64,000 nt of DNA from Psammoneis japonica (GCA_008632985.1 QPGO01000157.1:1-64000), one strand, 5' to 3'; positions 1-59,415 are shown, counted from the stretch's first letter. Notes: generated by a model not told the origin, from the sequence alone. A program made the numbers and translations.

Positions 1-1449
1 AAAAGCAATCGAAAGATTTGTTGGTGTTTGTGCATGCTCCTCGAGTGCAGACTTTTGCTTCAAGGGCAGGGTCTGGTGAGGCAGGCACCAGACGTGCTCT
101 CGCCACTCTGACATTTCCACAAGAGAAACGACTCATTTTACATGTCTCATGTCAGATCAGTCAGCACAGCAGTTGATTGAAGGACCACAAATCTGACTGA
201 CAATGACTGAGCACTGGAGCAGACAACATCAGGCAACAAAAGGCCTGTGTGTGACACGGAAGAGCAGGCGGGTCAAGCAGCAGCAGCAGGATGGCGGCAC
301 ACACCTTGGAGCCCACTGAAGATCACAAATCACCTGTCCAACACTCACTTTGTCAACATGTTGTGACCCATGCCCAACAGTTTTTTTGTCAGGGGCTGTG
401 CTTGACAGGCGGGAACTTTCGGCGCAGTGATTTTTGTGTGGCTTTGCGCCATCTTGTCATGATGGACAGTGAATTCAGGCCAATGAGCACTTCACATGCC
501 AAGACCTGGTTGATCCAATTTGAGGGGTGACAGCAATTTGCCCAAGCAGCATTGCAAAAGGTGTTGTGAGAGTTGTTTCAAGAAATGAACATGTGCTGTG
601 TGCCACAGGAGTGAGTCCCCACATTTGCTCCACTTGTGGCCTGCTGGACACAGCAACTGCTTCCCAGCCACTCAACCTCCTGTTGCCATCATGCCACAAA
701 TGCTTGCCAAAACCATGCATCAATCTGTTGACCCATTGCACATTGCAGCAGTCACCTCTTTCCTTTGCCATTGCATTTGGTGTCCTGCTCCCACTCTTCC
801 ATGGACAAGCAGACTGAGAGCTCCAAACACACACCCAAATTGTTTGCAGCTTCTGCATTGGACAGCTGCCCAGAGAGTGTGCACATGCTTGATGACAATG
901 TCACCTCCCTTCAACAACAAGCTCCCCATGACATGTGAGTCCTCCAAAAGTCAAGAACATGTCAGATTGTTCCAAGCTGGACCTGCTCAACCAATCTGGA
1001 TGTGATGCCTCCAGTGGACAATGACATGGTGGGAAAAACAAACCATGGTGCAGAGAGGACAACAAGTTCAGGGCATGCACTAAACTCAAGCACTCGGCAT
1101 GCAACATTGCTGCCAAAACAAGGACACCTTCCTCAAGACCACCCAGGCCATCGCTGAGCACAACATTGGTTGGGAGCATGATGATGTGGGTGTGATGACA
1201 ACTGGCATGGCAGAGTTGAGACTCCCAGCCCTCATGCCCCCCCCACAACACAGTTGCAACGGCCACCATGGCTGAGAAGGCAGAGCATTAGAAGGTTGCC
1301 CTCAGAATCCACCATGGAGTCCACCATGATGACAGCATCAAGATGCACCACACCAACTTTTCCAATTAATTTGCCTTGACTCTTGGGCAGTGCTCACAAG
1401 ACCTGTGAAACAGGGCAAAATCATGTCCAGACTGGGCCACTGTTAAAAC

Positions 1450-2780
1450 AAAAATTCAGATTTGACAGCACTCCCACGTGCCTCATTTAAACTCATTGCA
1501 TGGCACAATGCCAGACAAGGCATTGCCCAGAGCACACCATCATTGAGACAGAGACTGCCACACTGTCATTCAAACTGGGCAGACCGTGTCAACCAGCAAA
1601 TGTTTTTGGAAAAGTTTGAAGACTCAGAGATTCTTGGTGGCAAGACTGGGCATCAGGAACTGTGAGTCACCATTGGCACCATCTCTGGCAGATGTGGCAG
1701 CAGATGCTGACATGCCCACAAATGTTGAGCAGGACCAAGCCTGCCAACAGGTTCTCAATCAACAGCAAGAACAAGTGCAGCATGGCAACCCAGCATGCGG
1801 CATTAAGAACAAGAATGCCAGTGGTGCTGACAAACATCCTGCAGCTTTTGATGTGGCCTGTGACTTCCGAGCAAGTTTCAACAAAGCCCCACATCAGCTG
1901 GCGCCAGCACCCCATGTCAATCAGCAAGAATTGACCTTCACCACAGATGGCAACAGGGCTGGATGTGGCAGTGGACACAGGAGCAGTGGTTGAGGATGCA
2001 GTGGTCATGGNCATGGTGGGGATGGACACAGGATCAGATCCAAGGAAGACACCCTCTGAGGCAACCCAAATGCCCACGCTGATCAACCAGCACCCAGTGT
2101 GGCAGATGGTGCCATGGACAAGACACAAGACTCAGGATGATCAAGGCAGGAGGGGTCCAATTCCCACTGGACAGCTCCTGTGACCCCCCAGAAAACTCCA
2201 TTGAAGGCCACTTGCTTGATCTAGATGAATGCTGCCAACTGCACTTGGGTCAATGACCCTCAAGATTCAAAGGCTGAAGACCTCACAGTGACTCAACAGC
2301 TGCTCCACAGTGTGTCTGGCATCAAACAAGAAGCCAATCCACAGTGCACATGCTGTCCCTGTGATGCACAAGGACTCTGCATGCACATGTTTGCAAACCA
2401 AGCAGATGCTGTCAAGAGTGAGTGCAGCAAGCATGCAGTGCAGGATGCTGCCATTGCTGGAAGAGCAATGGACATCATCATGCACCTGAGTGACCAGACC
2501 CACAACAAGATCATCCAGTCAAACAGACTCTTCAATTGATCAGTCCCAACATTGCTTTGCTCAAGGGCAAGACTCCTCATCAACAAGGCATGCGCATGTG
2601 TCTGGGGCTGCAGAGCCCATTTGCTGGTCTGTCACTGAGTGCAATCCTGAACCCAGCCCCCCATGTGATGTCATTTTGTCAACAAGCTCGCGTTCTAGAT
2701 CATGTTGTGCAAATTCCTCAAGTTTGGAATGGCGGTCAACCTGCCAAATGGACAACTGTTGCAAGATTTTTCTCTGCGGG
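1450..2780 (+). mobile_element. Degenerate Ty1/Copia (diatom CoDi-like) gag-pol remnant
   Basis: Broken frames read FLEKFEDSEILGGKTGH, KNKNASGADKHPAAFDVAC (cf. LxNxYxxGxDxYPxTLxxAY), a decayed Gly/Arg-rich tract, AVKSECSKHAVQDA, KIIQSNRLFN and SPNIALLKGKT (cf. GPNIxSLKGKT), in the order I recall for CoDi elements. Confidence 0.55.
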
Positions 2781-2855
2781 GTCCAGTGATGTGAAAAACT
2801 GCTGGCAACAAAGACACCAGTGTGCAGGAGGCACTTCTAGCAGCTGCCACGTCAT

Positions 2856-3054
2856 TGGATGCTTGTGGCTAATGTTCTTGAATCGTTTGCAGTTGCAATC
2901 ACCCACCTGGCATGGAATGCCAGCTGCGCACGTGCTCGCAGTTGTTTTGTGTTGGCATTGAAAATGTCTTCCCAGAGAGCATGCACACAGTCTATCTGGA
3001 GATGTCTTGGGACAACCTCATGCATCAATCTCGAGGGACAAGAAAGCAGTTGAA
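2856..3054. repeat. Dispersed ~200 bp repeat, hypermutated copy (inverted homolog at 40418-40598)
   Basis: tggatgcttgtggctaatgttcttgaatcgtttgcagttgcaatc... aligns with the reverse complement of 40418-40598. Confidence 0.9.
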
Positions 3055-3559
3055 GCTCAGCCACCACATGCTCTTGATGCCAGCACCTCACATTCACAGA
3101 TGAACGTTTCAAGAGCCACCTTTTGGCTGAAGTGCTTCAAGCCCGCACGAGCATGTCCACGAGTGGCAACGTTGGACAAGCGTCACAAGTTTCCAGAATG
3201 GTGAATCAAGTTGGACAGTCCATGTGCGACAGCCCATTACGTGATGGATTCCATTGCCATGAATGTTGAGTCGTCCTTGCCGCCATCAGATTGCCAGATT
3301 GTGGAATGGCCAAGTTCTGTCATCGGCAATGTTTAACTCCAGTGGCCCACTCAGCCACCCCCTCTTATTTTCGCGCAGTTCAGAAAAAAATCTTACATGT
3401 GCATCCCTCAGTCACCACGAACACAGCTTGCATTATCGTTGAAGAGAATGCTGATCGTATGAGCGGTTCTTGGTTGAGAGAAACATGAATCAATCGAAAT
3501 AAATTTTCGCCCGCCCATCCACCACATCGGCCCGCCCAGCCATCGCCCGCGCGCTTCGG

Positions 3560-13440: not shown

Positions 13441-16400
13441 CAGACACTGGTATGGGATTTCCTTCCTGTTTTCTTGAACGGTGTCATATTCAAAGACAAG
13501 CTTCGTTGACTGCACGAGATCAAACGTCGCGGGCATTATAAGAGTACCGTGATACGACTTACTGTAGCCTCTAGAGAGAGAAGCCTTGCATACTAGGTAC
13601 TGTAGAACAGAGATAGATAGCCAGAGTAGCGTTGAGTAACATTATGCCAACCGCTCCCAACATGGGAGGTCTGGTGTTGACCTAGCATAATTGAAACAGC
13701 AGGCTGTCCATCATCCGGCGACGCTCCACCAAAAGTATGTATTGTACGACAAACAAAACGGACCAGATGACTAGTGATGTCGCATTATGAAGCTCTCCTT
13801 TGTACAGAATTATTGTTATCAATATATTCTACTATCTACTCCGTGTCGTATCCACATTCTCCATGTCTAAAGAGGGTGAGTCACATTTGCCACCCCCATC
13901 AATGCAATCGGCAATGCTTCATTTCAATGTCAGCTGACCGAGTGATGTACGGTGCTCGGACACAGCAGATCTCCATCCGAGATTTGCTTCTCATTTTTTC
14001 TTCTTAGCTAGCACACACGTGTTGTCGCTGTCATCAGTTTGCAGGGAGGTCTCACACGTGTGTCACCCTTGCTGTCGCTGCTCCGTTAGGTTGTGGCCTT
14101 GTGCCATCGCATGTTCATTTGCGCTGCAAATCCCATCTTGCCTTGATCATTTTGTGAGCCTATCGAGTCTGCCTCACTTTTCTGCTCCCGCAAGCACCTT
14201 TTTCTCAGAACCAAGGCATTTTCTGAGACACAAAACAGTGCTAAAATCATCATCCCGTTTGTGCCACTGAGCTGGTTTTTGCAACAAACTTGGCATCACT
14301 GTTGAAGACTGGAGTGGCACCAGTGGCTTGCTGACAAATGGCAACATTGGCTTTTCCTGAGTGCAAATCAAATGGCTGTGCATGACCACCTTTTTGTGCA
14401 CCTGAGAACCATGGTGCCAACTGAGAGTGAAAAGCACACCACCAACAGCCTCCGAGAGGTTCAAATCATGTTTCCAGCACACCCACATCTCTCTGAGGTC
14501 TCAAAGCACATGGGTGAAGTTTGCAGCAAGTTGCCACTTGATCTTGATCCTTTCATGATGATGCCAAACACACCCAATCCAAAGATGGCATTGTTGCTGC
14601 CTCTGTTGAGAGAGCACATCCTCAAGAACATCCTCATCGCTCCCACAGACATGAGACCCTGCTGATGCCAAGTCAGTGGAATCTCCATTCAAGCAGGGGC
14701 TCCTCTTCTTGTCTGAACTCCAGTGGTTGATGATGTCTCTCATGACAGATGATGTTTGACTGCAAGAATGAAGTGGCCTTAAAGAATTGTGCTCAGAAAG
14801 TGACCATTGTCACCAGCACTTTGGAGATGCACTTTGACCCAAGCATGAAACACAGCTGCCAGGATTGGAACAAACTCTCTGACAATTCATTCCCACAAAA
14901 ATGCACATCAGCACCTCCACCTGTGACAACATCAGGCACTTCTGCAATGGCAGATTTCAAGGACCTTGTTGGTGATGAGCTTGACTGCAACTGCGCTGCA
15001 TCAAAAATGTCCCCTTTGTCCTGCACACCCAACACTGTGACATCTTTGATGCCTCTGCAATCCAAGTGTCTGTTTGATCCAGATGCTCCACCCAAGGATG
15101 TCTGCCAATGGTTTGACTGTCATGTTGTTGACAAAGCCATTTTCTCTAAACCTCATTTGTGCCATGTGACAGTGGCTGTTTGCACCATTTGCATGGTGTG
15201 GATCATCTTGTCCTTGCAAAGGGATCCCTGTTTGCAGGTGGGTCTAACTCTGGATCACCAGGCACTCCTTTGCAAGCCAAGTTTGTGACATGATGCTTGT
15301 CTCTGGTGCTTCAATTTCCAGCCTCATGCCACTGATTGTGGGTGCTGCATCCACCCCCTTTGGTGTTTCCTGCAAAACCAGACAGGAGACAGGGTTTTGC
15401 CATTGGAAATCACCCTCTCAATGATCTCTCACAATGCTGGCACATCCATTGCTTTGAGGCATTGCACATGCCATGCAAGCCATTGTCCTGTGCTGACACC
15501 ATGTTTCTCAAGAACAGCTGACCACATCAGATTGTTGCTTTCTGCCATGGACATGCCACAATTGAACAACAGGACAGATGGGCCATGTTTGATGAGTGTC
15601 AGATCCGTTGCCAGCCAGCCTCTCCTGCTTGCATCATGATCTCACAGCATCTGCAGAGACTTCAAATAATTGCATGCCAAATTTTACAAGGTGGAGCTTT
15701 TTCATCACATGGATCCAAATCTGCACCATGCATCATTTTGCATTTCAAAAATCAACATCCATTGGTGTTGTTGGTGCCACCCACATGTGGCAAGGCATGC
15801 TGTGCAATGGCATGCATCTGCTTTGTTTTGTTCCTCTTGTTCTTGTCAATTTTAGCTTGATCTGGCTGCTCTTGTTTTTGATGCATGCTCTTTTGTCACT
15901 TTTTAAGATTTTGCCATGAGCTCTGTTCTCTGAACACTGCTTTTGCACCCTCCCCTCACTCTGTGATCTGCAGTTTGCTTTCCGCATTTTTGGCACTTGT
16001 CAATGACAGCCTTTAAAACAATGTTCTTGCATGTGCACTTCATTGATGCAATGGTGAAAGGAGCAGCTTGACAACAAAGAATTTTCTCTGCTGGAGAAGA
16101 TGTCAATGTTTGATGCCAGTGTTGGCAGATTGCTGGGTGACAAAACAAAAAAAACCTCAATGAGTGCACCCATCAGCATGCAGAGTTTTGGCAGGTGATG
16201 AAGGCTGCAAACTTTTCCAGCTGTCATTTGGGGAGCAGCAAGGATGAGATGGGCTGCTCAAGTGAATTGTCTGGCAGCAGCAACAGTGACTGAGGGGAGT
16301 TGCCAGGTGGCTGCTGTGAAACTCATTTTCAAAAAACATTGTTGACGTGCAGTTTGTTTCTAACTGCACATGTGGTGTCTCATGGAAACATTGTTGTTGC

Positions 16401-17299
16401 CTTGCCAGATTGCAGATCCAGTCCAAATCCCCATCTCATTCAAAGTGTCACACAGTCATTCACAGCTCATCTGACAGAACCCCCTGGGGGTGGCATTTCT
16501 GCTTGGCGCCATCCTGCTGCTTGACTTAAATTTGTTTTGAAAAATGTCATTGACAAGCAGTTTGTTTCCAACTGCACACAGGGTGTCTCATGCAAACATT
16601 GTTGTCATCAGTTGGCAACATCCAACCAGAACAGATCCCCATCGATGCCTGTCCCATGGCAGCAATCATGACAAACAACAAGAAAGATGGCAACAGCTTG
16701 TGAACAATGGAGCTCAAAAAGAACTGTTGTCATCATGCTGCTCTCTGCTTGCATCTGAACTTTTGCTTTCTTGGGCTGTTGTCATGTTTCATGTCATCAA
16801 GTCAACAACAGGGTTTTCTTGTTTGTGTGCACCATGATGATGGTGCTGATGGCAAACATTGCACATGCAGTGACAAGCAACACAACAGCATTCAAGTGTG
16901 CTCAAAGAGAGCAAGGAGATGGGAATGCAGCCAAGACATTTTGCAAAGTGCCTGCGGTGTGCCACCACAAAAGTTGCATTGTTGTGCACCTGTTGTTTCT
17001 GACATGCAGCATCAAAAATGCATCGGTGGTCAGAGAAAGCCACTGCAATGGGCTTTGCTGTTTATGACCTTGATTGCCTTGGCCTCTCCTCACAAATCTG
17101 TTGATGCTGAAGTCTTTGTCTTGTTTCACCTTGCACTGTAATTGCAGTCAACAGAGGAATTGGATGGAAACTGGGGTTGTTCCCAACTGATTGACATTTG
17201 AAACAGAGAAAAAGAGAGCTGCAAGCAAAAACAGCAAACTGGGCCATTCAGCACAAGAAAAGGAGCGAGACAACATAATTGCCAAGAACAAGATTTGGC

Positions 17300-18600
17300 A
17301 ATCCAATGGCAACAATTGGAGAGAAAGGTGGAGCCCTCAGAAAGGACCATTGTGTGATTGCGTTTGATCTTTGACAATGAGTGAATCATTGAAGGAGCCC
17401 TGCATTGACTGTGAGGCAAAATTTGAGCATTCTCACTTGGACAGTGTAAAATTAACTCAATTGCATGATGATGGCACTGCTCATGCTAAGAAGTGTCCTT
17501 GTTTTGATGTCTTTCACGGCATTGAATTATCGCTGTTTGTTGAAGATTGAATTTGTAAGATTGCTGCAAAATTGGAGTTCACGACTGGTGCAGAATTGTT
17601 TGAAAATTTTGAAGAAGTGCTGACGGATGCTGCTGAGGACAAGTGTGGGCTGATTTGACTGATTCGATTTCAGACCCTCAGAAAATGGTGGTGTGCTTTG
17701 ATCAAGAGATGAGTTGCTTTTGTTTGTCTTGTTCTGACAATGAGGCACATGATGCAATGCTTGAATGCTTGCCAACTTTGAAAAAAACCTTTTCAATCCC
17801 AAGTGCAGGCATGTGCAGATTGCATGGAGATGTTGATGCATTGTTCAAACAAGCTCCCAGGAAACATGTCTCAAGCCAACAATGCCCAGAAGAAGAAGAT
17901 GATTTTTGACAGTTTTCCTTGACCCTGGCATGAGAAGCATGCCAGAGCTGGATGGAGATTGCCAGTTGCATGAACAACAAGAAGTTGTTTGCAGACACAA
18001 GGGAAACACCAAGAAACAACAAGATGAGAAGAGGAAAGGAACTTTCTCATCCAATCAAGCCTCAAGATGCAGCCACAGCAATGGCGCTTGTGTCAAAGCA
18101 GAGTCCAGATGCCTGGCACATTCCAGTCATTGCCACAAGTGGAAGGATTGCATCTTAAATCCTGAGAGTCAAAATTGTTGGCCAAGGACAAACTGAGGTG
18201 GATGCAACAATGGCTGTGGTGGAGGCCAAGGTGGCTGTCAAGGTTGTGGTCCACAAGGTTGTGGTGGCCAAGGTGGACACCCATGTTGAGAACAATGGAG
18301 CTGTTGTAATCAAGGTGGTTGTGGTGGTCATGGCTGTGGAGGCTGTGGTGGCCAACAGAACTTGCAAGGTGGTGATTCATGTCAGCACCAGAATCAAAAT
18401 GGCACCCAAGCCAATGGTGAATCCCAAGGCTGTGGCATTCCAACTGGACAAGCTCCTCCAGGTGGCTGGCACATCCCAATCATTGCCACAAGTGGAGGGA
18501 TTGCATCTTAAATCCTGAGAGTCAAAATTGTTGACCAAGAACAAACTGAGGTGGGTGCAACAAGTGGTGAAGGCCAAGGTGGCTGTCAAGTGCAAACTTC
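17300..18600 (+). mobile_element. Degenerate Ty3/Gypsy gag remnant with a duplicated knuckle-like/Gly-rich block
   Basis: AELFENFEEVLTDAAEDK, FDSFP*PW, SHCHKWKDCILNPESQN and a decayed GGQGG/GRG tract resemble diatom Gypsy Gag. The block at ~18110-18250 repeats at ~18465-18590. Confidence 0.6.
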
Positions 18601-19959
18601 CAAAGAAACGGGCTCTGCATTGAAACCCTCTGGAACCTGCAAACCCCATTTGTGACAGTGCAAAACTGGGTCTTGTGTGCAGGAGATTTTTGTGTCAGAT
18701 GATTTTCCATCAAGACAGATTTCTGATGCAGGGTGGGCCATTGTTGCCACCTCTCTTTGTCTCTGTGTGATGCAGTGGCAAATCTTGTTCGAAACCTTGT
18801 TGTGGAGCTCCTGCATTTTGAGCTGCAACATGGATGTGGGCAGATCTTCCAATGATGAAAAGTGGTCCACAGTTTTTCTCTGTGTGTCCTTTGGTGGTGC
18901 ATTTGGGTCATTTTTCATCATGAGCTGCACACATGCAGTTTTGCCAATGGAGGAAGACCCCACAAACCTTTGGCAAGAATGTGCTCCCACCAAGTTTTGG
19001 GGTTGTGGCCATCATGGCCACAGATCACTTGCAACTTGCAGGGGCTTGTCCTTGATGGCGCAGCAACAATGTTCTTGCTTTGAAGTGACAACCCGGCATT
19101 TTGTGGCTAAACTTGCTCATTGCAGGAACAGACAGATTTTTCTTCTTCTTGGCCTTGTTGTCATTGCAGTTGGATTTAGCATCTGGATCAAGAAATTGTT
19201 GGGCAGCTTTGAACAATGGGAAAAAATCTCCAGGAAACAACTCAAGAGCAGGAGTCAAGTGGGCAGAGGTGGTCAATGCCAAAGCTGTCTTGGACACAGG
19301 ATTGCAGTCCTTTTGGACTTGTTCTGCTTGCACAGCATTTGGAGCATGAGAGGAATCTTCTCCCATCATGCTTTGTTTTGCTTGTTGGCTCACAAAGTTG
19401 TCACAAACAAAGGCAATGAGTTGCTTGGCTTTGGGAGATGGCAGAAGCTCTGCGGCATCTGTGACAAAGTTGACTCTCTGCATGAATGACTTGGTTTGTG
19501 GAGAGAGAAAGTTTCTCAGCTCCGTGGCAATGTTGCATGCCACAACATCAAGGCAAGCACCCCGGCTGCTGCTGACAGCCATCCTGGTTGCCACCTTCTT
19601 GACCCTTGTTCCAGGAGATGGCAAGGGCGGCTTCCCCCCATTGGACATGAGGGGCCAAAAGGAGCTGAATGCAAAAGCACACAAGAGACCATGCAGCATG
19701 GCTGGCAATGAAGATTTGTGGGAAGCAAACTCAAAAGTTCAGGAGGGTGGCTGTGGACAGCAAATTGGGGCCATGTTGGAGGGAAGTTTCCCGCCAAAAC
19801 AAGAATTTCCTGCCAGTGCCTCACTCCACAACAGAAACCATCATTGCAGCACAATTTTTGACAGCTCAAACAACTGGTTTGTAGAGACACTTTGTTTTGC
19901 ATTGTCTCAGGAAAATTTTGAATCCAGTCCATTCAGGGAAATGAACTTTCTCCATCCTC

Positions 19960-20900
19960 TGGAATGAATGCTGAAAATGAGTGATTGAGCTGCCCAACCA
20001 AGTGCACTGTAAAGAGGGAGTCCAGACAACGATTCAGACACAAGCCTGCATTCATGAACTCTGTTGCTTCTTCCAGTGGAATTTGCACCCACCTGCAGCA
20101 CCTTGTCTCCAACTCAAGGTGTGTTCTTTGGTGAGTTGTTTTTGACGCGCCTTCATGGCGGGCTTCTCACAACCATCGACACAAAAGCTTTTCATCCTGT
20201 GAGCACACTTGAATCTGAGAAGACACACCCATCATGCGGCTGTCAATTGGAAAGTGTCCTTGGTCCAAACTGCTTCAGAAACAAACTTTTGGCATCTTCC
20301 TCTTCTTCAGTTGGCAAATGAAGTTTGCCAGTGGACTCAACAGTTTGTTCAAATTCATCATCATCTTCCACAACAACATCGTTCTTTGTGCTCAGCAGCA
20401 GTGCAGGAACTGTCTTCTGGCAAAGGCACTTGTGGCACATCAACTCAATTGAAAGATCTTTCAGATTGTGCATTGCATGCCAAATGAATGCACTCTTGAC
20501 TTCAGGATTGCCACTGAAAAAAGGTGGGAGTGCAGGCTTGCCTCTTTTGATTTTTGAGGGAAGTGGTCTCCCACTTGTGCCAAACATTGATGCCAATGCT
20601 GCACAGCAAGCCAGTTCGTGATGGCAATGACGCCATCCTCCTCCAGTCTTTTTGATGCATTCCAGCTCTGGGTGGGACCTTGCACTGCTGACCTGTGACA
20701 AAATGTTTTTCATCATCCGATGCATGTTTCGTGCGCACATTTCTGCGTGTTGCATTGTAAAAAATTGTTCCACGCTCTGCCTGTTTTGCGAAGCCAAAGG
20801 CTTTTTATTTTCTGCACTTGTGACAATAAAAATGCACTGGGTGTGTTCTTCAATGTCTGAAGAATGCACCCGGGCACAATGTGAACAATGCACTTCAAGT
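19960..20900 (-). mobile_element. Degenerate DNA transposase fragment (IS630/Tc1-mariner-related type)
   Basis: WVCLLRFKCAHRMKSFCVDGCEKPAMK fits the WxxxLGFxYxxxKKxYYVDGHEK motif once Tyr->Cys decay is allowed. Confidence 0.5.
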
Positions 20901-21298
20901 GTGGAGGAGGAGATGCGTTCACAAAATTGCCTCTTTTTCTGTTGGCGGTCATTTGCATTTTAATCACTGAACAATTTTGCTGCAGAGCTTGCACGCAGAA
21001 TTGTGCAGGCCAAATGTCACAAAAAGTCCCACCTGGGACTGGAGCCCATCTTTTGCAGCATGTCAACAGCACTTGCCTCAAGTCACATTGCCCTCAATCT
21101 CTTTTCCTTCCCCCTTGAGGTTGTCAAGTGCAGCCTGAAGCACTGCCATGATGTGAAGTGCACGATGCCAAATGGACACATTTTTTCACAGTCAGCAGCC
21201 AGATTCTTGTCATCCTGATCAGGCAACACTGACTTAAAGCCATGTGGATGATTGACAACAGCAGACAAAATGTCAACGCGATCTTGTGCAACTGTCTT

Positions 21299-24200
21299 TA
21301 CACAACCGTCGTCTGGGTAAACCGAGGTCGGTGCAAAAATGCTGTGCACTCAAGTCGAATCCCAACAGTCATGTCGAGGTGCAATTTGTCAACTGACAGA
21401 ATCCAACTCTTCAACTGACATCCCATCATCATCTTTTTCTTCAGAAAGATGTTGTTTCTTCTTTGCTCATTGTGCTTTGTCACTGTTGAGTGTGTCTGGA
21501 TCTGTGTTGGGTGGCATTTCGGTGTGGTCAAGTGCAGTTCTTCCAAATTTTGTCTTGACAGATCCACTTTGCAGCCACACTTCCACAGAGTCATTGCCAG
21601 CAGCTGGTGGTGGACGAAGGTGCCAATGGGGCTTGCCAACAATGACAAAAAGAAACATTTGTTGTGACAGTTTTCCACCCTTCTCAAGGCCACATGAGCA
21701 CTCCGTTTTGCACAGATTCTCACTTCGTCAGCAACAACATTGTTCTCCTTTGCAACATTTGAAATGCCACTGACACTTCCACACTGCTTTTTCAACTCTC
21801 TGCCCATGATTTGCACCCCCTCATCATTGACATTGAATTTTGCATTGTGGTGCTCTGCTGGCATCTATTGATTCTGAACGCAAGAATCCAAGAACAGCCA
21901 ATGCATGTGTTTTGATGCAAACAATTTTTGGACATCAGACATGATGGGTTTTTGCACTTCGGCCCTCAGGGAGCTTTGCAGGTGGGTTGGCAAGGTGGGC
22001 ACAGGTCGCAGTGCCAAAAGCCAAGGATTTTCAAGAAGCTGTGAACATCGTCGTTGAGCGACCAGGCACATGACAATTCTCATTCTTTTTGTTTTCCCTC
22101 CAATGAAATTAACTTCAACTTGGTGACGTGTTGTGCTGTTTGCGCAGAAATCTGCACCGAATTTCGAACAATCAATTCCAGCCACAAGCCACACCCAACA
22201 AGGAACCTGCATCCAAGGATCTGGGATCTTTGTTGGATGCCGCACGCTCGCAGCACATGCAGCAGGGACCTTTCTTCATTTCAAGATTTTTGCCTGGGTG
22301 CAGACAGACTGCACATCAAGCAGAATTTTGCTTGCCGCACTCACTCACATGCATGCACACAGGTGCTCACAATGATTGATCATGTTGTTTCCATGCGTGG
22401 TCCAGGTCAGTGGTCGGCGGTGTGTGGGATGATGAAGGTTCAATGCACCAGCAGTCACAAGATGGCGGTGGAGCACTGCACTTGTTCATTGCCTTGGCAA
22501 ACTCAAGGGACCAGTGAGGCAAGCGCGGGCACTGCTCAAGAAACTTGATCTTGCCAATCTCCATCGGAATGGAATTTAGAAGCAGTTCCCACTGATTCTC
22601 AGATCTTTTTGAACGTGCAATCCCTGAAATGCATTCCTTGCAAGCCCAAGTTCAAAATGTCAAGGACAAGCAAATCCGTTGGCTTGGAACTCTTGGGAGG
22701 GATGCATTCGCAGATGAAGTCATTTGAGCCAACATCATTCAAGCAACGCAGGTTGCCACACTCAGCTCTTTGAGAAGAAAGCATGCCGGTCGTCTCTGAC
22801 ACAATGCCTTTCCAAGCACATTCTTCTGTGTTCGACAGTCATTTGTCCGCTGAAATCCAGGCATGACAATTTTCCACGTGTGACTCTTCTTTTGCCAGAG
22901 CGTCTTTCAAAGAACAATGCATGCATCAGGATCCTTGTTGCTGGGACAGTGTGCAACAGGGAGGCAGGTGAGGCAGGCATCCCAACAGCAACACTTCTTC
23001 TTCTTCTTCTTCTTCATCATTTGGGTCAGAAGCAATGGCTGAGTTCATTGTGTCACACGAGGATCCCGAACTCGTTCAACTTAAATCCTTTGGTGGATGA
23101 GCGTCTCCAGCTCCATTGTTTCAAATTGGGACAGGCAAAGCACAATCGAGTTGCAAAAAGATCCTGATCCTTGTGCGCTTCTTTCCTAAGAAGACGCTTC
23201 CGGCTCTCACATTGCAATTCATGCCTTGCCAACTTGATTTGCTGGTGAAGGAATTTGATGCCCAAACTGTGCATCTGTTGCCACTCCTCTCTGGACAAGC
23301 CAACTTTGGCCCAACTCGCTTCGATGACAGCTTCTCCTGCTTTTTGCAAGCATTTCCCGTGAGCTTCGCATCATGGTGTTGTTTTTTCACCCCACTCTGA
23401 GCAGAAGCAGGGCTCGGTGATGTCACTGCAGGGTGGAGTGACAGTGCATGCATTTGAGTTGGAATGGCCATTCTGCTTCTGCTGTGTCTGTTGAGTCTTG
23501 CACCAGTTGCTTCTGAAGGGCTCGGTTTCTTGCAAGCACTCTCGATCCAGTTGTTCAGCCATGGCCAGAAGAGTTTCCAGCATTCGACCTGGCTGTCCCT
23601 GCAACCTTGTGATGCCGACACCTGGATGCCAACACACCAAGGCTGGATGAATCATCATGAAAAACTGCAGATTGATGAAACTGGGGTGCAAAGCAACCAT
23701 CATTGAGAACTTTGTTTCCATGCAAAGTGATTGCTGCCCTTGTCACTTGTTGTCAACAACAGCACATGGATGGCGTCGCTGCAGCATTGCTCGGTTGTGC
23801 GTCCTCCTTTCAACAATGCCACACAAGAAATCTCGGAGTTTGATGGCAGTGGCGTTGGGTTGTGCCCCATTGGGGTGAGGGTGAAGGCAGTTTCCATGGA
23901 CCTTGTTTGGCATCGCAAAAGTGCTGGCAGCAGGATCAAACAGGAGCAAGTTGTTTGAGCAAGGCTTTGCAGGACTGTCCTCCCACCCCACACGATGACA
24001 GGGGCTTCATTGCTCGGACAAATGGCAAACATGTCATGGCCCTTGTGTGGTGCATGATTCTGCATGGGCGGTTTCGATGACATCAGCTGCATTTTCCTGC
24101 TCACGCTGCATTGGTTGGAGTCACGCGTGTCCATTTCTCTTCCCATGTGCCATCTCATCGTGAGAGTCAGTGGAAATGATGAGATCGCTGACAGGAAATG

Positions 24201-25138
24201 GAGTGTTGTTGCAAGTTTCACTCTCTGCCAGCGGACCACTCCAGTGCCCACCAAACACAAAGGCATCCACACAATTGTTTGATTTGTCGTGAAGTGCCAC
24301 TTCAAACAAGGCAATGAGTCAAATGTGCAAGAGCATGTGCTGGAGTCTTGTCGTTGTTTGTGTCAAAACAAGCTCTCTTGGACAGTGCTGTGCAATCATT
24401 TGAGTTTGTCGAGATTGGTTTAAAATCTCAGGTTGACGTCATGGTGGTCCCAAAGGACCACAAGGTGCCAATGGTGCAGCATGTGCCAGACTCGCAACGC
24501 GAATGTCCACAGTCACCTTGGCATGGGAAAGTGTCAGCCCGATTCTCGAAATTCCAGAGCCAAGGCCAGAAAAAGCAACTGACAAGCACATGGCAAGGTG
24601 GACACACACCAGATGATTTGGTTCACTGCTGCCTGCATCATTTTGGCATCAAGGTTGACAAAATGTCAGGATCCACCAGCTCATGACTCAACAACAACCG
24701 CCCACCAAAGCCCTTGCCACTGACTGATGGTTTCTGCAACATCTCATTTTCTGTTCTTGCAAATGCTGCTGGTCTCAGATCAGAAGAGCACAATGCACCC
24801 AGAGTGCAAAGTCTGCAGTGTCGAAATGGAGGGATGACAACTTGTCAAGCCCACCAGTGGTCGAATGGTGGCAACACGGACCGACCCCTTTGCTGGTGAT
24901 TTGCCCTGACTGGAGCAGCTGAGCTTGCGTCATTGTCGAACAACCCATGCCCCACCTAACGCCAGAACGGTCCTTTCTCGTTTTTCGTCACATTGAGAGG
25001 AAAAAGGGAGCTGTTGCACCCATCAAATGTTTTTTTGAAACAATCCAAGGCAAGGAGAAAGAGAACGACCGGAGTGAGAGCCGACTGGCATGCGCAGGGC
25101 ACACTGCAGTTTTCGACGCAAGGGAGCAATCTGTGTAG
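21299..25138 (-). mobile_element. Probable decayed DNA transposon (unclassified); TA-free but partly CpG-retaining block
   Basis: Long interrupted protein-like minus frames and composition distinct from the flanks. Only a 6 bp inverted terminus (tacaca...tgtgta). Family not recognised. Confidence 0.3.
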
Positions 25139-33449: not shown

Positions 33450-34200
33450 AATTGGGGTTGGGAGTAGCGAGCTGGGACAGCAGTTTGGCGGAGTGGCGGG
33501 TGAGTTGGTCAGCAAGAGATTTGGTCATCGCAAAGCCAAGGCTTCAAAGGCCCCATTGTGATGGAGTCGAAGTGTGGTGGGGGTCAAGCCAAAATGTGCG
33601 GGGGTGTGTGTTTTTCCAAGTGGCAGCGGCAGTGGGGAGGATGGCAGATGGGGACAGTTGTGTGAAGGCCCAGGCAGCATGGGCAGTGGGGTGTTGGAAG
33701 GAGGATTTGGTGGTCCAAGGGGGGAGCAGGTGGGGCAGAGATGGGGTGTTGTTGGTCGGCTCCAAAGGGCCTCAGAGAGGAGGCGGTGTTCAAAGCAGCC
33801 AGTTGCTTCAAAGTGATCAATGGAGAAGGGGACAAGGTGGATGCCAGCATCATTGAGGGCATGTGCAAGGGTTGCTTTGTGTTGAGTTTTGTGTGTTCTG
33901 TCTGACTTCTGTTTGGTGCTCGTGCACATGGTGTGCCTTGGCGCACAAGGTTTGAGGATGGGGCAGGCAAGCCAGGAGCAGGCAGTGGAGGAGGTTTGGG
34001 AATGGCAACGTTGATTGCAAGGCAGTGGTGGCCACAGGGGGAGGCAGTGGAAGCAGCTGGATTGAGCTGGATGCCTGCATCAGCGGGGTGTTTGAGGGGT
34101 GAGTGGGGTTCGAGGTTGGTGGGTTCATGATGGACGGTGGAAGAGTCGGTGCAAATGCCGGAGAGGGGGGCGAGGGTCTGAAATGTGGGCTGTGGTCCAC
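33450..34200 (-). mobile_element. 3' end of a non-LTR retrotransposon with restriction-like endonuclease (CRE/R2-type), decayed
   Basis: KHPADAGIQL...LAINVAIP (cf. RPAD...LAIDVTI), followed by LVPFSIDHF (cf. PFxxDxFG). Confidence 0.45.
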
Positions 34201-34439
34201 CAGGAGGTTCTGACAAGATGTCAGAAGGAATGGACATTGAAGTTGACAGCACCATTGCCGTTGACACAAATGCACCAATTGAACACAAGCCTTCACATGA
34301 CACACATTTGTTGCATGAAAACCAAATCACAAATGAGAAAAATGAAGATGAACAAGTGGAGTTGAGCTGCAGTGGAGTGCCAGTGCCCAAGGCAAAAAGC
34401 ATGAATGCTGACATGCATGGCACCCACATCAGTCTTGGC

Positions 34440-35760
34440 TGGTGTGCAAACAAATGAGTGGAGCTCACTCATCTCGTTTGTTGAGAGTGTTGTTTGATTC
34501 AGGCAGTGCAGCTGCTCTCATTCATGAATGATGTTTGGCACACGGAGCCACTCCAAGTCTGTGCAAGAAGACAGTTGCATGCAATGTGGCTGCAGGACCA
34601 ATGAACAGCAATGGAGTGATTGGTTTGGAGACAATTGCATCACCTGAATTTGACAGGTCAAGGAGCATTCACTGTCAACAAGCGCTGGCATTTCAAATGC
34701 TGTGTCAATGCAACATGATTCTTGGATTGGATTTTTTGACCAAAGCAGGGACAGATGTAAATTTTTCATCAAGAACAGCAAAATGGTTGGACAAGTCCAT
34801 GCCTGTGAAAGAACTCACCTTTTGGGACAATGCAGAGAATGCTTGTTTTGCTCTTGCAGGTCCAGAAGCAGACAAGGAGGACATTGACAAATTTGAGTTT
34901 CATTCATGCGCTGCTCAAATTTTGGATGCCAAGTGTGAGTCAGCATCTCCAGAAGAAGTGGCCAAGAAGCAAAAGCATCAATCAAGAGAGCAGCAATTGG
35001 AGTTGCAACAAGTGCTGGCCAAATTTTCCAAGCTGTTTGACAGAGAATGGGGTCAGCATCCACACATGTTGGTTCACTTGGAAATTGATGCCAAAGCAAT
35101 TCCTGTCCATGCTCAAGCATGTGCTGTTCCAAGAATTCACCAAGACATTTTCAAAAAAGAACTTCAGCATCTTGTCTGAATGGGGGTGTTGAGGCCTTGT
35201 GGTCCCACTCAGTGGGCATTTCCTGCATTTGTCACACCTAAAAAGGATCAACAAGTGTGGTGGGCATCCAATTTTTGCATGCTCAACAAGGTGCTAAAGA
35301 GGTTGATCTGTCCTTTGCCAAGAATTCAAGACATTTTTAAGAAGAGAAAGGGACACAAGCATTTCACCAAGTTGGACTTGTCCATGTTCCACTGCAATTT
35401 GGAGCTGGATGAAGAATCCAAGGAACTGTGCACTGTTGTTGCTCCTTGTGGCAAGCTCCAATGTTGTCAACTTGAGATGGGATTAAAGCCAGCTCCAGGC
35501 ACCATTGCTCAAGTGGTGATTGAGGAAGTGCTGACTGACATGGATGCAGACTGCTTCATTGATGATGTTGGTCTCTTCTCAATCCTTTGGTTGGATCATC
35601 TGGCAGTGTTGAGTGCGATGCTGAAACAGCCAGAAGAGAATGGTTTGAAAGTAAATCCACTCAAGTGTGAATGGGCCATTCAAAAAACCGATTTTCTCAG
35701 GTGTTGGATGACTCCAGAAAGTGTCAAACCTTGGAAAAGAAGGTTTTGGCATGGCATCTT
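34440..35760 (+). mobile_element. Ty3/Gypsy pol remnant: aspartic protease and reverse transcriptase
   Basis: LRVLFDSGS (34481), CNMILGLDFL, WAFPAFVTPKKD, PLPRIQDI, FTKLDLSMFHC, DCFIDDVGLFS (YxDD region), NGLKVNPLKCEW. Confidence 0.92.
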
Positions 35761-36639
35761 TGTCACAGCACATCCATTTTACAACCTTGAGCTGCCCTCA
35801 AGATCTGAATCTGCATTTTGAGCTCCTGCCTGTTGGCAGCACGTCTTTGGTGGGGGTGGGGGGCAGACACAGGAGGCTCAGACCAAGTGAAGAGACAGGT
35901 GGGAGTGCAAACAATTGCTGCCAGCAGTCTTGGGCTCTGTTGGTTGCACCCAGTGCCATGTCTTGAAAAGTCATGACCTCCTGTCATTCTGCTGGAGACA
36001 TGTCCTGTGCGGTGCATTGTAAAGTTTCCCCCCTCCAGCTCAAAAGACTGTGTGTGCTCTTGTTGAGATCACGTAAAAACCACGCCAGGAGGGCTCTGCA
36101 TGGGATTTCACCATCTGACCCCCTGTGCTCATGCACAGCTCTGAACTGCAGTCAGTCTGATGGCACACTCTCTCTGCCCGGTCAAGCAAATTTTGTTTGA
36201 AGGATCACAAAAAAGCACCCAAATGAACCCAGCCCCCAGCGAGCATCCTGAAATGCACAACTCACACTCAACCTTGCCAGAGACTGTGTCAATGCAATGA
36301 CACCAAGTTGGGATTCTCACAGGATGGTGACATTGTGATGCTGACTTCCACCTCTGTCATTTCAAATGTTGCTGACACTGTGTCAGTCTCACTTTGCTCT
36401 CCCCACTGTGCCGCCACATGCCACAAACAATGGCCAAGGTTGCAAAGCATGAACAGGCCGCAAATGTGCAAACAGAGCTTTGCAGCAAATCCTGACATGG
36501 TTTCCTGGCCCTTTGATGAAATGCCAGTGTTCTTGTTCACATTGAGGTCCATCTTAATGGACACAGTGAGAGTCAGAATTGCGGGTGCACCAGCCCCAGA
36601 TTGCGGGTCTGTTTTGTGACTGCTGCCACCTTCAAGGCT

Positions 36640-36830
36640 GCCCCGTTGTCAAGATGGCCAAGCCCAGCACTTGAGAGGTGACATCATGCACATGTGGTCT
36701 TTGTGCATGAGCCAAGATCCACTTTTTGTGAAGCTGTTTCTTGATGGAAACCACTCTTGAATCCACCCCACTTGCAACCACAAGCAACTTGCTCATCTTG
36801 AGAATCGCTCTGACTGATTGCAGCTTGAAA
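36640..36830 (-). pseudogene. Captured, hypermutated fragment resembling UTP4/cirhin WD40 protein
   Basis: VVASGVDSRVVSI...WILAHAQRPHVHDV resembles the UTP4 SGVD...W...RxHTHDV motif. Confidence 0.5.
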
Positions 36831-36987
36831 TGAGTGTTCCTGTTGGCATGGATCTTCCCAAGCACTCCACCATCGTGCAAAATGCAGGCAACCATTTCAT
36901 GTTGTTGTCACCTGAAAGAAGACTCACAACACCGAATGGCTCCAACGGCAATGCTGCCGCCTCTCTAGCTAGACGGCGATGCTGTGG

Positions 36988-51600: not shown

Positions 51601-52949
51601 TTGAATGGCAGGGTCATCAAACCCTGCATGACACAGAGTGGCACAGCTCAACTTCAGCAAAACAGGGAGCAACAGGTGCCAGCCCAGATGACACATGAGA
51701 GGACACAAAGGCTTGTCATTGTTGCAAATCATTGTTGCAAACAAAATTTTGCAGGCTGGAATCACCCTGCAGTGATGAAATTCTGCACATCAGAGTTGAA
51801 CCTGCACGCTTGAATCATTTGACATTTCCCAGGGCAAAAGTTTCAGCCCAAGTCTGGAGAATGTCCAAAACTGGTGTGATGAGAAGCAAATCTCATGTGG
51901 GAAAATGCAGTCTGGTGCCAAGTTGACATGCACTCAGCAAGCAGAATTTCATGCAAGTTGTGTGGCAACAGTTGCTGATCTTGAGAAGCACAAAAGATGC
52001 AGGCTTGCAATTTGGCAAAGTGCAGTTGGCAAGTTGTGAGCCAACATTGTTGGGTTGTCAGAATGGGATTTCCATCAATGACACCGCAGTGCTCAGATTT
52101 GAGACCATGCATCTCTGCCAGCATGCTTGCCAGAGAGGAGGATGTTGTGACATTTGGTTTTGTCATTCAAAAAATCCTCAATCATTTCCAGTCACTCAAA
52201 GAAGGGCTTGAAATGTTCTTGGTCTTGGCCTCACAACCAAAACAGGCAAGAAGATGTGCTGGAAAGCTGTGCCAGCATGTGATGATGGGGGGCACATGGC
52301 AAGCTGCCTGTCCATTTCCTGACAACATGGAAAGGACAAACAACATTTTGCATTGCCTTGTCACACAACCAGCTGTCACTTGGGTGTGTTTGATGCTTTG
52401 TGGCACATTTTGCACTCAGAGTTAAGCAGGTTTTGACAGGTTCTTAGTGATTGCCTTCATTGCATGTGGAGTGCCTGCTGTCACTTTGGCCATTTGGGAG
52501 GTTCCTTGAAGCTCTGTGACATGAGCCACACTTGCAAATGCAATGCTTGAGACTCTTGACAAGCACTCCTCTTGCATGCAAGCCTGCTTGTCTGCCACAA
52601 TTTTGGCTCTTGCTGACAAAAGCAGGAAGGTGAAAGCCAGAGTTTGGCAAGTCATGACCTGCTTGCCTGCTCCCCCACTAAAGAGTCATCTGTGACATGT
52701 TTCTGTGCTGAACCAGAGTGATGCTTGTCAACAATTGAAGTTCCTAAATGTCTGCCCATTGTTTCTGTCAATCTTCATCACACATGGACATTGGCTGTTC
52801 TTCTTGATGGCTGTCAAGTTGCAAATGATTCAATTGTTTTCACTTGTTTTGAGTTGCCAGTTTTGCTTTTTGTGTGTGCATCATCAAACTTGTTAAGTTT
52901 GCATGCATTTCATCCCTTCTCTTTCTGCCAACCCAAAATCTGCCAATGA

Positions 52950-58930: not shown

Positions 58931-58944
58931 AGATTGGTGGCATT

Positions 58945-59415
58945 GAGTCCTTCCATTCCTTTGGCAGATGATGAAAGCACCACAAAGCTGGTTTCATTTT
59001 GATCCAACAGACCAAGAACAGCACCACACTTGTGTTGGCTCTTAAGAATGTCAAACAGGCTACAGCCCAAATGGATCTTCCCCTTGTCTTCCTTGGGCTT
59101 TGGCAAACATGCTGTCTCATGCTGTCAGGAGTGTTGTCACTTGTTGCATCCATGGAAACAACAGTGCTGCTTGCGAACATGGCTGCATTTGTCAACAACA
59201 ACACTTTCTCTGCCATTGACTTGTCAGACTCAGAATCTGCCTTTTGCTGTGTGTTTCGGCAGCAGGACTTGCAATGCACTGAGCATCAAGAACAATCTTG
59301 CAGCTTCATTGTCATCAGAATCACTGTGGCAAATCATGCTGTTCCTGTGCAAGGTCTCTCTTGAGAGTTGGTGTCCCCCCCTGCCCCTTGACCATCAATG
59401 ATGTCAACAACCACA
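58945..59415 (-). pseudogene. Hypermutated duplicate of the 5' end and upstream region of the TBC gene (32841-33330)
   Basis: Colinear same-orientation alignment, e.g. gatccaacagaccaagaacag vs gatccaacagaccgagaacag, and shared tctctcttgagag. Confidence 0.92.

Follow-up and report, generated by a model that had tools for sequence, protein, structure and literature searches.

Islands of mobile-element relics in the diatom Psammoneis japonica, probably rewritten by TpA-directed transitions together with CpG decay

Composition and extent of the islands

The window analysed here is a stretch of 64,000 nucleotides from Psammoneis japonica (GCA_008632985.1 QPGO01000157.1:1-64000) that includes Ns and one gap. 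Genes, among them a conserved diatom gene and a sulfate permease, lie beside four domains, or islands, in which the dinucleotide TA is nearly absent. Island 1 (1-3330; TA observed/expected ratio, o/e, 0.07; CG o/e 0.20) is truncated by the start of the window. Island 2, the focal domain, occupies 14010-25135 (TA o/e 0.05, CG o/e 0.26). Island 3 (33470-36966) contains a Ty3/gypsy-like relic, and island 4 spans 48970-60215 (TA o/e 0.05, CG o/e 0.12). In a sliding 1-kb scan of the window, the four domains have TA o/e of 0.00-0.10, CG o/e of 0.02-0.49, and TG and CA o/e of ~1.5-2.3, against 0.4-0.9 for TA and 0.7-1.2 for CG in the flanks between them. A preliminary description of this DNA had recognized TA- and CG-poor, TG- and CA-rich domains next to normal neighbours, and the scan and the pooled counts below agree with it. 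At its coordinates (1-3360, 14030-25135, 33340-36960 and 48930-60300), TA o/e is 0.069, 0.054, 0.065 and 0.049, and CG o/e is 0.20, 0.26, 0.21 and 0.12, respectively. Its example, 15001-15300, was exact: there are 0 CG and 2 TA, together with 43 TG and 30 CA.

Pooled over 26.4 kb, the island cores hold 89 TA (o/e 0.05) and 244 CG (o/e 0.16), together with 3050 CA (o/e 1.84) and 2997 TG (o/e 1.83). The corresponding ratios in 32.9 kb of pooled flanks are 0.63, 1.00, 1.19 and 1.15. At flank density the cores would be expected to have ~1135 TA and ~1489 CG, and the Poisson probability of the counts found underflows to zero. Base composition and G+C are equal in cores and flanks, so the islands are invisible in a G+C plot. 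A significant strand skew of the products is seen in the core of island 1 alone (TG 267 versus CA 361, p 2e-4), the other three islands having none.

TA edges were placed by maximum likelihood at 3330, 14010, 25135, 33470, 48970 and 60215. The right edge of island 3 (36966) was set by eye because a TA-poor stretch beyond it pulled the computed value out to 37430. The edges are step-like, and TA depletion spans entire multi-element islands up to a shared edge. The earlier view that the changes are restricted to sharply bounded islands is thus borne out by the edge analysis.

Relics and repeats within the islands

One relic is a reverse transcriptase (RT) of the Ty3/gypsy type at 35180-35818 (+) in island 3, which matches Pfam RVT_1 (E 1.3e-11) and the Ty3 RT 4ol8 (E 1.1e-13). 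A single Tyr is left in its 213 aa. None of the six conserved Tyr columns is kept (three are now Cys, and one each His, Leu and Phe), and only one of the four conserved Arg columns is, the rest being Trp, Cys and Gln, while 52 of the 73 other conserved (non-Tyr) columns are retained. The ancestral coding sequence of this relic did contain TA codons, which answers the concern, raised in the preliminary description, that the active elements might themselves have been TA-free. In island 4, a DNA-transposase relic of Plavaka (KDZ) type lies at 53845-54381 (+) and matches PF18759 (E 2.2e-8, 34.1 bits, cut-off 26.3).

When all 116 ORFs of at least 70 aa in islands 2 and 3 were compared with Pfam, the RT was the sole match; none of the 87 such ORFs in 14030-25135 had one. 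In a Pfam comparison at E<=1 of 39 ORFs (32 of the 125 in islands 1 and 4, and 7 from islands 2 and 3), Plavaka was the sole convincing match. The domains had been called filled with transposable elements; this is documented in part, by the RT and Plavaka relics, which pass the curated Pfam cut-offs, but not for island 2, where there is no match.

Island 2 contains a dispersed repeated segment at 20201-21400 (TA o/e 0.07, CG o/e 0.31). Contigs from a public DNA run, X1, give it a summed word depth of 7,828-22,857, which is not a copy number; the other bins of the island have ~100-340, except for 573-706 at 21401-22600. A tandem repeat was sought in 20201-21400 and none was found. The segment seems to represent a repeated family that was already TA-poor, so some of the composition may have been brought in with the insertion.

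Direction of the changes and their sequence context

Two pairs of duplicates have one copy in an island and the other beside or within a gene, and so polarize the changes. The island copy of pair A, at 58944-59367 (+), lies ~900 bp inside island 4 and is a copy of the 5' end of a host gene. Its unmutated counterpart, 32840-33243 (+), has normal CG and TA densities and is the 5' end of an 865-aa ORF (30615-33209, -). This ORF is a conserved gene with homologues across diatoms, e.g., at 48% identity in Fragilaria crotonensis, some of which are named by their sources 'rhodanese domain-containing' or 'TBC1 domain family member 23'. The two copies are 73% identical, and 90% identical in purine/pyrimidine coding. 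In pair B, the mutated copy is at 2856-3051 (+) in the rim of island 1, and the unmutated one, at 40419-40599 (-), is directly beyond a sulfate-permease exon; they are 79% identical, and 89% in purine/pyrimidine coding. For pair A, the comparison demonstrates that a host-derived fragment within island 4 has been mutated and its genic copy spared.

The genic copies of the two pairs are untouched, with 38 CG and 19 TA present in 585 bp. The island copies have lost 36 of the 38 CG (21 to CA and 13 to TG) and 17 of the 19 TA (8 to TG and 7 to CA). The two pairs offer only 555 aligned sites in all, among which there are 89 transitions and 21 transversions. With strands pooled, C>T is found at 33/75 CpG sites versus 19/197 elsewhere; it needs a 3' G and is barely sensitive to the 5' base (TCH 6/63 versus VCH 13/134). 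A>G is found at 14/32 T-A-B sites, 1/6 T-A-A sites and 22/245 sites not preceded by T. Transitions at TpA are about five times commoner than in other A>G contexts, an excess on which the preliminary description had made its case depend. Within the islands, ten pairs of repeats contain 30 swaps between TG and CA, accounting for 60 of their 158 transitions; these pairs overlap one another and hence are not independent. Together with pairs A and B, they confirm the proposal that both CG and TA go to TG or CA, on both strands. All the evidence on direction consists of fixed differences, with no mutation caught in progress.

Which TAs are left depends on their neighbours. Relative to the flanks, the residual density in the cores is 0.008 for VTAB, 0.08 for TTAB, 0.21 for VTAA and 0.71 for TTAA, the ancestral distribution of contexts being taken from the genic flanks and not from the elements' own ancestors. 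TAA or TTA make up 83 of the 89 surviving core TAs, which are distributed over all four islands. Judged from the sequence, TA followed by A is spared in this window.

A 2.8-kb inverted duplicate (3564-6334 versus 43636-40875), both copies of which have normal composition, was checked for a TA-only signature and set aside; the differences between its copies are ordinary.

Partial uncoupling of the two depletions

The loss of TA is partly uncoupled from that of CG. Over 25 core bins of 1 kb, the o/e values of TA and CG correlate with r = -0.35, and in four 1-kb bins of island 2 (20300-24299) CG o/e is 0.31-0.45 while TA o/e is 0.00-0.07. The rims, taken as 250 bp inward from each of the seven TA edges, already have the core density of TA (3.4 per kb), and their CG density is 29.7 per kb, versus 56.4 in flanks and 9.2 in cores. 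The rim at 24885-25135, for example, has 1 TA and 12 CG. Change-point edges of TA and CG were also tried as a measure, and gave offsets of mixed sign, from 60 to >1,300 bp; the rim count was used in their place. The partial uncoupling fits a second, separate mutator. The earlier argument that CpG deamination alone is insufficient for the loss of TA also holds.

Related loci in metagenomes

A similar state is found in a metagenome contig, L025, whose host genes are most like those of raphid pennate diatoms. One of its islands has TA o/e of 0.00-0.26 and CG o/e of 0.41-0.61, and the other has 0.04-0.21 and 0.61-0.77. The rule that the target TA is not followed by A did not reappear there: VTAB contributes 9 of the 14 residual core TAs, though the numbers are small. 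Among 50 related metagenome loci, strong TA depletion is present in L024 and L025 alone, and these represent one element: L024 matches the L025 island at 98.8% over 4.5 kb and is therefore not counted as independent. On these counts, strong TA depletion is not general to the related metagenome elements. In loci L028-L050, CG o/e is 0.24-0.86 (L044, at 1.01, excepted) and TA is normal at 0.52-0.91.

A model for the origin of the islands

The islands are probably made of relics and captured host fragments that have been rewritten in place by two context-specific transition processes. The setting would be the nuclear genome of a pennate-type diatom, in which old mobile-element relics and captured fragments of host sequence would have been altered at the DNA level, on both strands. 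The first process, CpG to TpG or CpA, would be the usual decay expected for methylated CpG in diatom transposons, and would still be continuing. The second, TpA to TpG or CpA, would amount to A>G on either strand. In this window it would favour an A with T before it and any base but A after it; it would be nearly complete, and would stop abruptly at the island edges. Because both processes would end in TG and CA, which neither of them attacks, these dinucleotides would accumulate with G+C constant. The second process may be directed at silenced foreign DNA, and the comparison below suggests that it is the same kind of targeted hypermutation as that seen in mutation-accumulation lines of Bigelowiella natans.

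For the chemistry, our leading guess, offered tentatively, is that an enzyme, ADAT2/TadA-like or another deaminase, deaminates adenine in the DNA. A-to-I deaminases of the ADAT/TadA-derived and ADAR types favour an adenine that directly follows U or T, as would be the case here. Their established substrates are RNA, and the action considered here would be on both strands of chromosomal DNA.

It is unlikely, but deserves to be weighed, that the reactive base is instead thymine. The T at TpA would be oxidized or modified (e.g., to TET/JBP-type 5-hydroxymethyl- or 5-formyl-uracil) and mispair with G, giving T>C, with the same targeting. In sequence alone, A>G on one strand and T>C on the other look alike, and 'A not followed by A' is equivalent to 'T not preceded by T'. 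The Plavaka/KDZ relic within an island bears on this chemistry too. Transposons of this class travel with TET/JBP genes in fungi, and in dinoflagellates 5hmU is enriched at TpA. Against this stands the sole experimental precedent, B. natans, where the authors propose adenine deamination as the cause (bioRxiv 10.64898/2026.01.13.699255).

Relation to other mutational systems

The closest known system is the TpA-only hypermutation of integrated viral DNA in B. natans (bioRxiv 10.64898/2026.01.13.699255). In that alga, the mutation rate in the affected regions rises by orders of magnitude in mutation-accumulation lines; of 231 mutations in two viral inserts, 230 are A>G or T>C changes, every one of them at TpA. 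In both algae, T:A>C:G at TpA gives TpG or CpA depending on the strand (15 of the 17 TA lost from pairs A and B became TG or CA), and it is restricted to discrete regions, of foreign origin in B. natans; here these are the four islands, with the RT and Plavaka relics and with island 2 lacking a documented mobile origin. The long-term footprint described for B. natans is likewise one of clustered windows that are TpA-poor, CpA- and TpG-rich, and enriched in RT and DDE domains. The two cases differ in lineage, a stramenopile diatom here and a rhizarian alga there, and in evidence, a fossil signature here versus measured mutations there. TA has been depleted much further here (o/e 0.05 versus 0.45 for the B. 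natans viral insert, as given in the preprint). A 3'-neighbour rule is found here, and the accessible preprint text gives no flanking context. CpG decay accompanies TpA loss in P. japonica but goes unmentioned in that text, where the spectrum is almost purely AT>GC. We read the extra CpG loss (36/38 CG) as probably an accompanying second process and not as a difference in the TpA process.

The idea of a second mutator holds, but a TpA process of this kind has already been described, in the 2026 B. natans preprint (bioRxiv 10.64898/2026.01.13.699255), and the earlier statement that no description was known is outdated. No report of TpA-directed hypermutation in a diatom was found in the literature searched, most subscription journals lying outside the search. 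Apparently, this is the same TA-targeted hypermutation as in B. natans, and one not yet described in diatoms.

Two better-known processes resemble it in part. Fungal RIP, too, hypermutates particular regions by transitions in a specific context and so ruins mobile elements. Its polarity is opposite, however: under RIP, CpA turns into TpA, and in the islands CpA builds up as TpA is lost (TA o/e 0.05, CA 1.84). RIP also mutates both copies of a duplicate, and pairs A and B have kept their genic copies intact. The decay of methylated transposons by deamination of 5mC resembles the CpG component, with CpG going to TpG or CpA in the islands and little other dependence on neighbours; CpG methylation of diatom transposons is documented in other species. 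However, 5mC decay cannot remove TpA, and the metagenome loci L028-L050 mostly have low CG with normal TA.

TpA-specific hypermutation of foreign DNA appears to have been reported once so far, in a chlorarachniophyte (the 2026 preprint). A saturated footprint in diatoms would carry the phenomenon into another major lineage, which dominates ecologically and contains genetically manipulable species. The diatom case would also let the TpA process be separated from the decay of methylated CpG, and would supply a candidate three-base motif. It is conceivable, if on balance doubtful, that DNA-level, TpA-directed editing of adenine (or thymine) marks and destroys silenced foreign DNA widely in SAR or beyond, and that in diatoms it is independent of CpG methylation, faster than CpG decay, guided by a T-A-not-A motif, and has erased ~99% of its best targets. 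If so, eukaryotes would have an editing pathway for genome defence that differs from both RIP and APOBEC-type restriction. For annotators, a footprint of this kind would be a warning that diatom transposon relics can become unrecognizable, with Tyr turned into Cys or His, Arg into Cys, Trp, His or Gln, and extra TGA stops, while G+C is unchanged. TA o/e together with TG+CA o/e in 1-kb windows makes a simple screen for other protist genomes.

Alternative explanations

There is a small chance that the composition was inherited, the element lineages having been TA- and CG-poor before insertion. The TA-poor segment at 20.2-21.4 kb, which draws a very large pile of near-identical contigs, is what such lineages would leave, and 5 of 150 representatives of RT homologues likewise have no Tyr. 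However, a functional RT cannot be Tyr-free, and the conserved Tyr and Arg codons of the relic are converted as expected. The fragment of a conserved host gene in island 4 bears the complete signature; the gene from which it derives is normal. The swaps between TG and CA in island repeats also point away from inheritance, since they imply that, after duplication, the copies resolved one ancestral CG or TA independently.

Rewriting in place by two processes has also to be set against rewriting by one, a dual-specificity deaminase responsible for C>T changes at CpG as well as A>G changes at TpA, for which we see only a slight chance. The two changes share islands and end products, and ADAT2 enzymes are reported to accept A as well as C in DNA as deamination substrates, as cited in the B. 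natans preprint (bioRxiv 10.64898/2026.01.13.699255). The B. natans spectrum as given there is nearly without C>T, however, and in P. japonica the two losses are uncoupled at the island rims as well as farther inside. In L025, the second island retains CG at 0.61-0.77 with TA at 0.04-0.21. The C>T changes here, needing a 3' G and hardly responding to the 5' base, behave as 5mC decay predicts.

Editing of retroelement RNA or cDNA before integration, by an ADAR- or APOBEC-like activity and not on chromosomal DNA, is very improbable. One island element is a retroelement, and ADAR-type editing favours a 5' U, but the products are strand-symmetric (TG 2997 versus CA 3050) with skew in island 1 only, the host-gene fragment and the DNA-transposase relic are also affected, and TA depletion fills multi-element islands to a common edge.

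Support for the assembled bases

A sequencing or assembly artefact has a negligible probability: although the window has its Ns and a gap and the sequence comes from one study only, contigs of a public DNA run agree with it over island and flank, bar sparse SNP-like differences, the island copies also carry indels and transversions relative to their counterparts, like old duplicates, and unrelated metagenome assemblies contain an island of similar kind. Agreement with raw data had been named in the preliminary description as a check. The contigs in question, from run X1 (possibly of the same project as the assembly), cover islands and flanks alike with ~1-3 differences each and so support the assembled bases; one of 1584 bases spans the left edge of island 2 (13904-15487) with 3 differences.

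A second run, X2, gave contigs on the flanks only, with intron-like GT..AG joints in the flanking genes and next to no cover in island 2; missing cover is no evidence, and no conclusion on silencing of the island is therefore drawn from it. Inside island 2, a partial list of differences between the window and run X1 has 20 entries, 9 of them CpG alleles.

Dinucleotide Composition of the Islands

Four islands are present in the window, at 1..3330, 14010..25135 (the focal one), 33470..36966 and 48970..60215 (islands 1 to 4). In a 1-kb sliding count, the observed/expected ratio (o/e) falls to 0.00-0.10 for TA and 0.02-0.49 for CG, with TG and CA rising to about 1.5-2.3, as against 0.4-0.9 for TA and 0.7-1.2 for CG in the genic flanks. 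The preliminary description had reported this double loss next to genes of normal composition, and both the sliding counts and the ratios over the domains as it delimited them bear it out (TA 0.069, 0.054, 0.065 and 0.049; CG 0.20, 0.26, 0.21 and 0.12, in window order); its example of 0 CG and 2 TA in 15001-15300 is exact. The island cores (inner parts; 26,401 bp) hold 89 TA (o/e 0.05), 244 CG (0.16), 3050 CA (1.84) and 2997 TG (1.83), compared with 1415 (0.63), 1856 (1.00), 2422 (1.19) and 2375 (1.15) in 32,904 bp of flanks. Base composition is the same in cores and flanks, so that the islands are invisible in a G+C profile. Apart from TA and CG, no word is notably depleted; the first-order Markov ratios of trinucleotides fall between 0.86 and 1.15, save for words containing TA. 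The products are strand-symmetric overall, with a skew in island 1 only (TG 267 vs CA 361).

The assembled bases are genuine. Contigs from a DNA sequencing run (X1) of the one public study found to contain the stretch span islands and flanks alike, one of 1584 bases (13904-15487) crossing the left edge of island 2 with 3 differences from the window. The differences are sparse and SNP-like, indicating that X1 is no mere copy of the assembly, although the two may stem from one project. At 20332-20333 the window has TG and the X1 contig CA; two sets of sequence from one organism differ here by a TG<->CA swap.

Genes and Mobile Elements

The flank genes are intron-bearing and eukaryotic (a sulfate permease, a DEAD-box helicase and a PhyH-domain protein), and, among named relatives, those closest to the permease and to an 865-aa ORF come from pennate diatoms (48-72% identity). 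Among the island ORFs scanned, only two families score above the Pfam cut-offs, one a Ty3/gypsy-type reverse transcriptase (RT; 35180-35818, island 3) and the other a Plavaka (KDZ) transposase relic (53845-54381, + strand, island 4). The latter is the middle one of three same-strand ORFs in 53182-55080 (+). Pfam finds no family match in the 87 ORFs of island 2, where a large pile of X1 contigs indicates that 20.2-21.4 kb is probably a dispersed repeat. The suggestion that the domains are filled with transposable elements is thus plausible, though documented only in part.

Direction of Change

Self-alignment of the window in a purine/pyrimidine code exposes duplicates masked by transitions. Two pairs match an unmutated copy outside the islands with an island copy: pair A (32840-33243 vs 58944-59367) has a DNA identity of 73%, rising to 90% in the two-letter code, and pair B (40419-40599, - strand, vs 2856-3051) 79% and 89%. 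Together they show 89 transitions and 21 transversions over 555 sites. Among 38 CG of the unmutated copies, 36 are gone from the island copies (21 to CA, 13 to TG), as are 17 of the 19 TA (8 to TG, 7 to CA); no TA became CG. In pair A, the unmutated member forms the 5' end of a gene that is conserved among diatoms and lies 100 bp from island 3. A host-derived fragment in island 4 therefore took on the full signature whereas the gene did not, which argues against a composition inherited from the elements and against a RIP-like rule striking both copies.

The RT relic, aligned with 60 homologues, tells the same direction. Tyr is lost from all 6 of its conserved columns (3 Cys, 1 His, 1 Leu, 1 Phe) and Arg from 3 of 4 (Trp, Cys and Gln); of the remaining 73 conserved columns, 52 are retained. 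Tyr to Cys or His is expected from TAY>TGY/CAY, and Arg to Cys, Trp or Gln from CGN>TGN/CAN. Ten repeat pairs internal to the islands, which overlap and are non-independent, contain 30 TG<->CA swaps, making up 60 of 158 transitions; such swaps are the sign of a single ancestral CG or TA that went different ways in the two copies. Pairs, RT columns and swaps all agree with the transitions first proposed, CG and TA to TG/CA on both strands.

Separation of TA Loss from CG Loss

In the cores TA is uniformly exhausted (o/e 0.00-0.10) while CG varies (0.04-0.45), and over 25 core bins the two are correlated at r = -0.35; four bins in 20.3-24.3 kb have CG at 0.31-0.45 with TA at 0.00-0.07. Within 250 bp inside each of the seven TA edges, taken together, TA has already reached its core density (3.4 per kb). 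In the same zone CG stands at 29.7 per kb, compared with 56.4 in flanks and 9.2 in cores, and declines to 14.9 and then 12.6 per kb deeper inside. TA drops in a single step at the edge; CG slopes off gradually. The 20 differences with the best support between the window and X1 in island 2, ahead of 152 further rows, include 9 with a CpG allele and 1 TG<->CA swap, and none of the 20 is TA-only, suggesting that CpG decay goes on after the TA targets are exhausted.

The context rates, pooled over strands in pairs A and B, differ with the neighbours (V, not T; B, not A; H, not G). C>T is tied to a 3' G and hardly to the 5' base, as expected of methyl-CpG decay: 14/26 in T-C-G and 19/49 in V-C-G, compared with 6/63 in T-C-H and 13/134 in V-C-H. 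A>G changes are found at 14/32 sites in T-A-B, 1/6 in T-A-A, 7/65 in V-A-A and 15/180 in V-A-B. These patterns point to two processes rather than one.

Neighbour Preference of the TA Process in the Window

The survival of residual TA depends strongly on the neighbours. With the ancestral context distribution borrowed from the genic flanks, the density in cores relative to flanks is 0.008 for VTAB (6 in cores, 896 in flanks), 0.08 for TTAB (16, 243), 0.21 for VTAA (37, 222) and 0.71 for TTAA (30, 53). The survivors, 83 of 89 being TAA or TTA, are scattered through all four islands. These ratios fit a rule in which the target would be an A with a 5' T and without a 3' A, changed to G independently on each strand. 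VTAB would then offer two good targets, the one-sided classes one and TTAA none. From the rates of the two extreme classes, a survival of about 0.075 is expected for the one-sided classes; about 0.14 is observed. TGA is the least enriched product (1.39, vs 1.51-1.80 for TGC, TGG and TGT), as expected under the rule.

Related Elements outside the Window

Tyr makes up less than 1% in 5 of 150 representatives of the RT homologues in a public protein library (P0146, P0226, P0139, P0174 and P0246), P0146 having none in 699 aa; the five could represent translated relics from other assemblies that were hypermutated in a similar way. A metagenome scan with P0146 as query returned 50 loci, most with ordinary TA (o/e 0.5-0.95). 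The more distant RT-bearing loci L028-L050 have CG at 0.24-0.86, except L044 (1.01), with TA at 0.52-0.91, and TG exceeds CA in all except L037. CpG decay alone leaves TA in place there, and these loci are a natural control showing that it need not bring TA loss.

One locus, L025, carries an island of its own. From 7.5 to 13.5 kb TA is at 0.00-0.26, except in one 500-bp bin (0.50), CG at 0.41-0.61 from 9 kb inwards and 0.13-0.38 at both ends, and TG and CA at 1.4-2.0, with normal flanks; from 20 kb onward TA is again at 0.04-0.21, with CG at 0.61-0.77. In its island cores 9 of the 14 residual TA are VTAB, small numbers in which the neighbour rule is not reproduced. The flanking genes are closest to raphid pennate diatoms (Seminavis robusta, 62%); L025 may come from the window's species or from a different one. 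L024 is the same element as the L025 island (98.8% identical). Intermediate TA depletion is seen in L007 (3250 bases; TA 0.39, CG 0.96), which could be an early, TA-only stage, and in L020 (1058 bases; TA 0.41, CG 0.34).

Mechanism and Relation to Known Systems

The signature of the islands is real and striking: a DNA-level, region-bounded process converts TpA to TpG/CpA on both strands, and CpG decay accompanies it. The TpA process appears to be aimed at silenced foreign DNA. The mutational reading of the preliminary description was right, but its claim of novelty has been overtaken by a bioRxiv preprint of April 2026 on mutation-accumulation lines of the chlorarachniophyte Bigelowiella natans (10.64898/2026.01.13.699255). 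There, the mutation rate of two integrated viral regions is about a thousand-fold above that of the remaining genome; of the 231 changes, 230 are A>G or T>C and fall without exception at TpA, and the genome has 124 window clusters in which TpA is depleted and CpA and TpG are enriched. In their sequence-level features, the window islands behave like those of B. natans, and are a case of the same, very recently described kind. They differ in lineage (a diatom), in depth (TA o/e 0.05 vs 0.45), in what is hit (relics of transposons and one captured piece of host sequence, not viral regions) and in the CpG decay that overlies the TA process. The text of the preprint is silent on diatoms, on CpG and on flanking context, and a literature search, with most subscription journals outside its coverage, found no description of TpA hypermutation in diatoms. 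The window adds to the known kind the uncoupling from CpG decay, the abrupt edge of the TA loss and a candidate target motif of three bases.

The B. natans study proposes that an ADAT2-like deaminase acts on adenine in DNA (10.64898/2026.01.13.699255). For the window, adenine deamination is the leading but tentative candidate chemistry. Thymine modification, inseparable from it by sequence alone, is rather unlikely. The Plavaka (KDZ) relic of island 4 could be relevant to the thymine route; KDZ transposons in fungi carry TET/JBP dioxygenase genes. Repair bias as the cause of the TpA change is remote, being bounded by the polymerase error rate, which it could not surpass. RIP is ruled out by the reversed polarity and the spared genic copies, and editing of RNA or cDNA before integration by the strand-symmetric products and the affected non-retroelement DNA.

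Other Repeats in the Window

An inverted, ORF-rich segmental duplication of 2.8 kb (3564-6334 vs 43636-40875) has normal composition; its copies are 87% identical, with TA o/e 0.49 in both and ordinary differences. Direct repeats, each some 556 bp long and 92-99% identical, occupy 6110-7445, just ahead of an assembly gap (8159-8537). Immediately outside island 3 lies a 477-bp direct duplicate (36988-37464 vs 38119-38585, 95.6% identical), whose second copy begins at the base following a lone N (38118). Over 36966-37430 TA is scarce and CG normal. Two tandem repeats with periods divisible by three are found in DNA of normal composition, one of 27 bp x 8.7 copies (26183-26458) and one of 69 bp x 4.2 copies (47337-47624), the latter within a 548-aa ORF (47040-48686, - strand).
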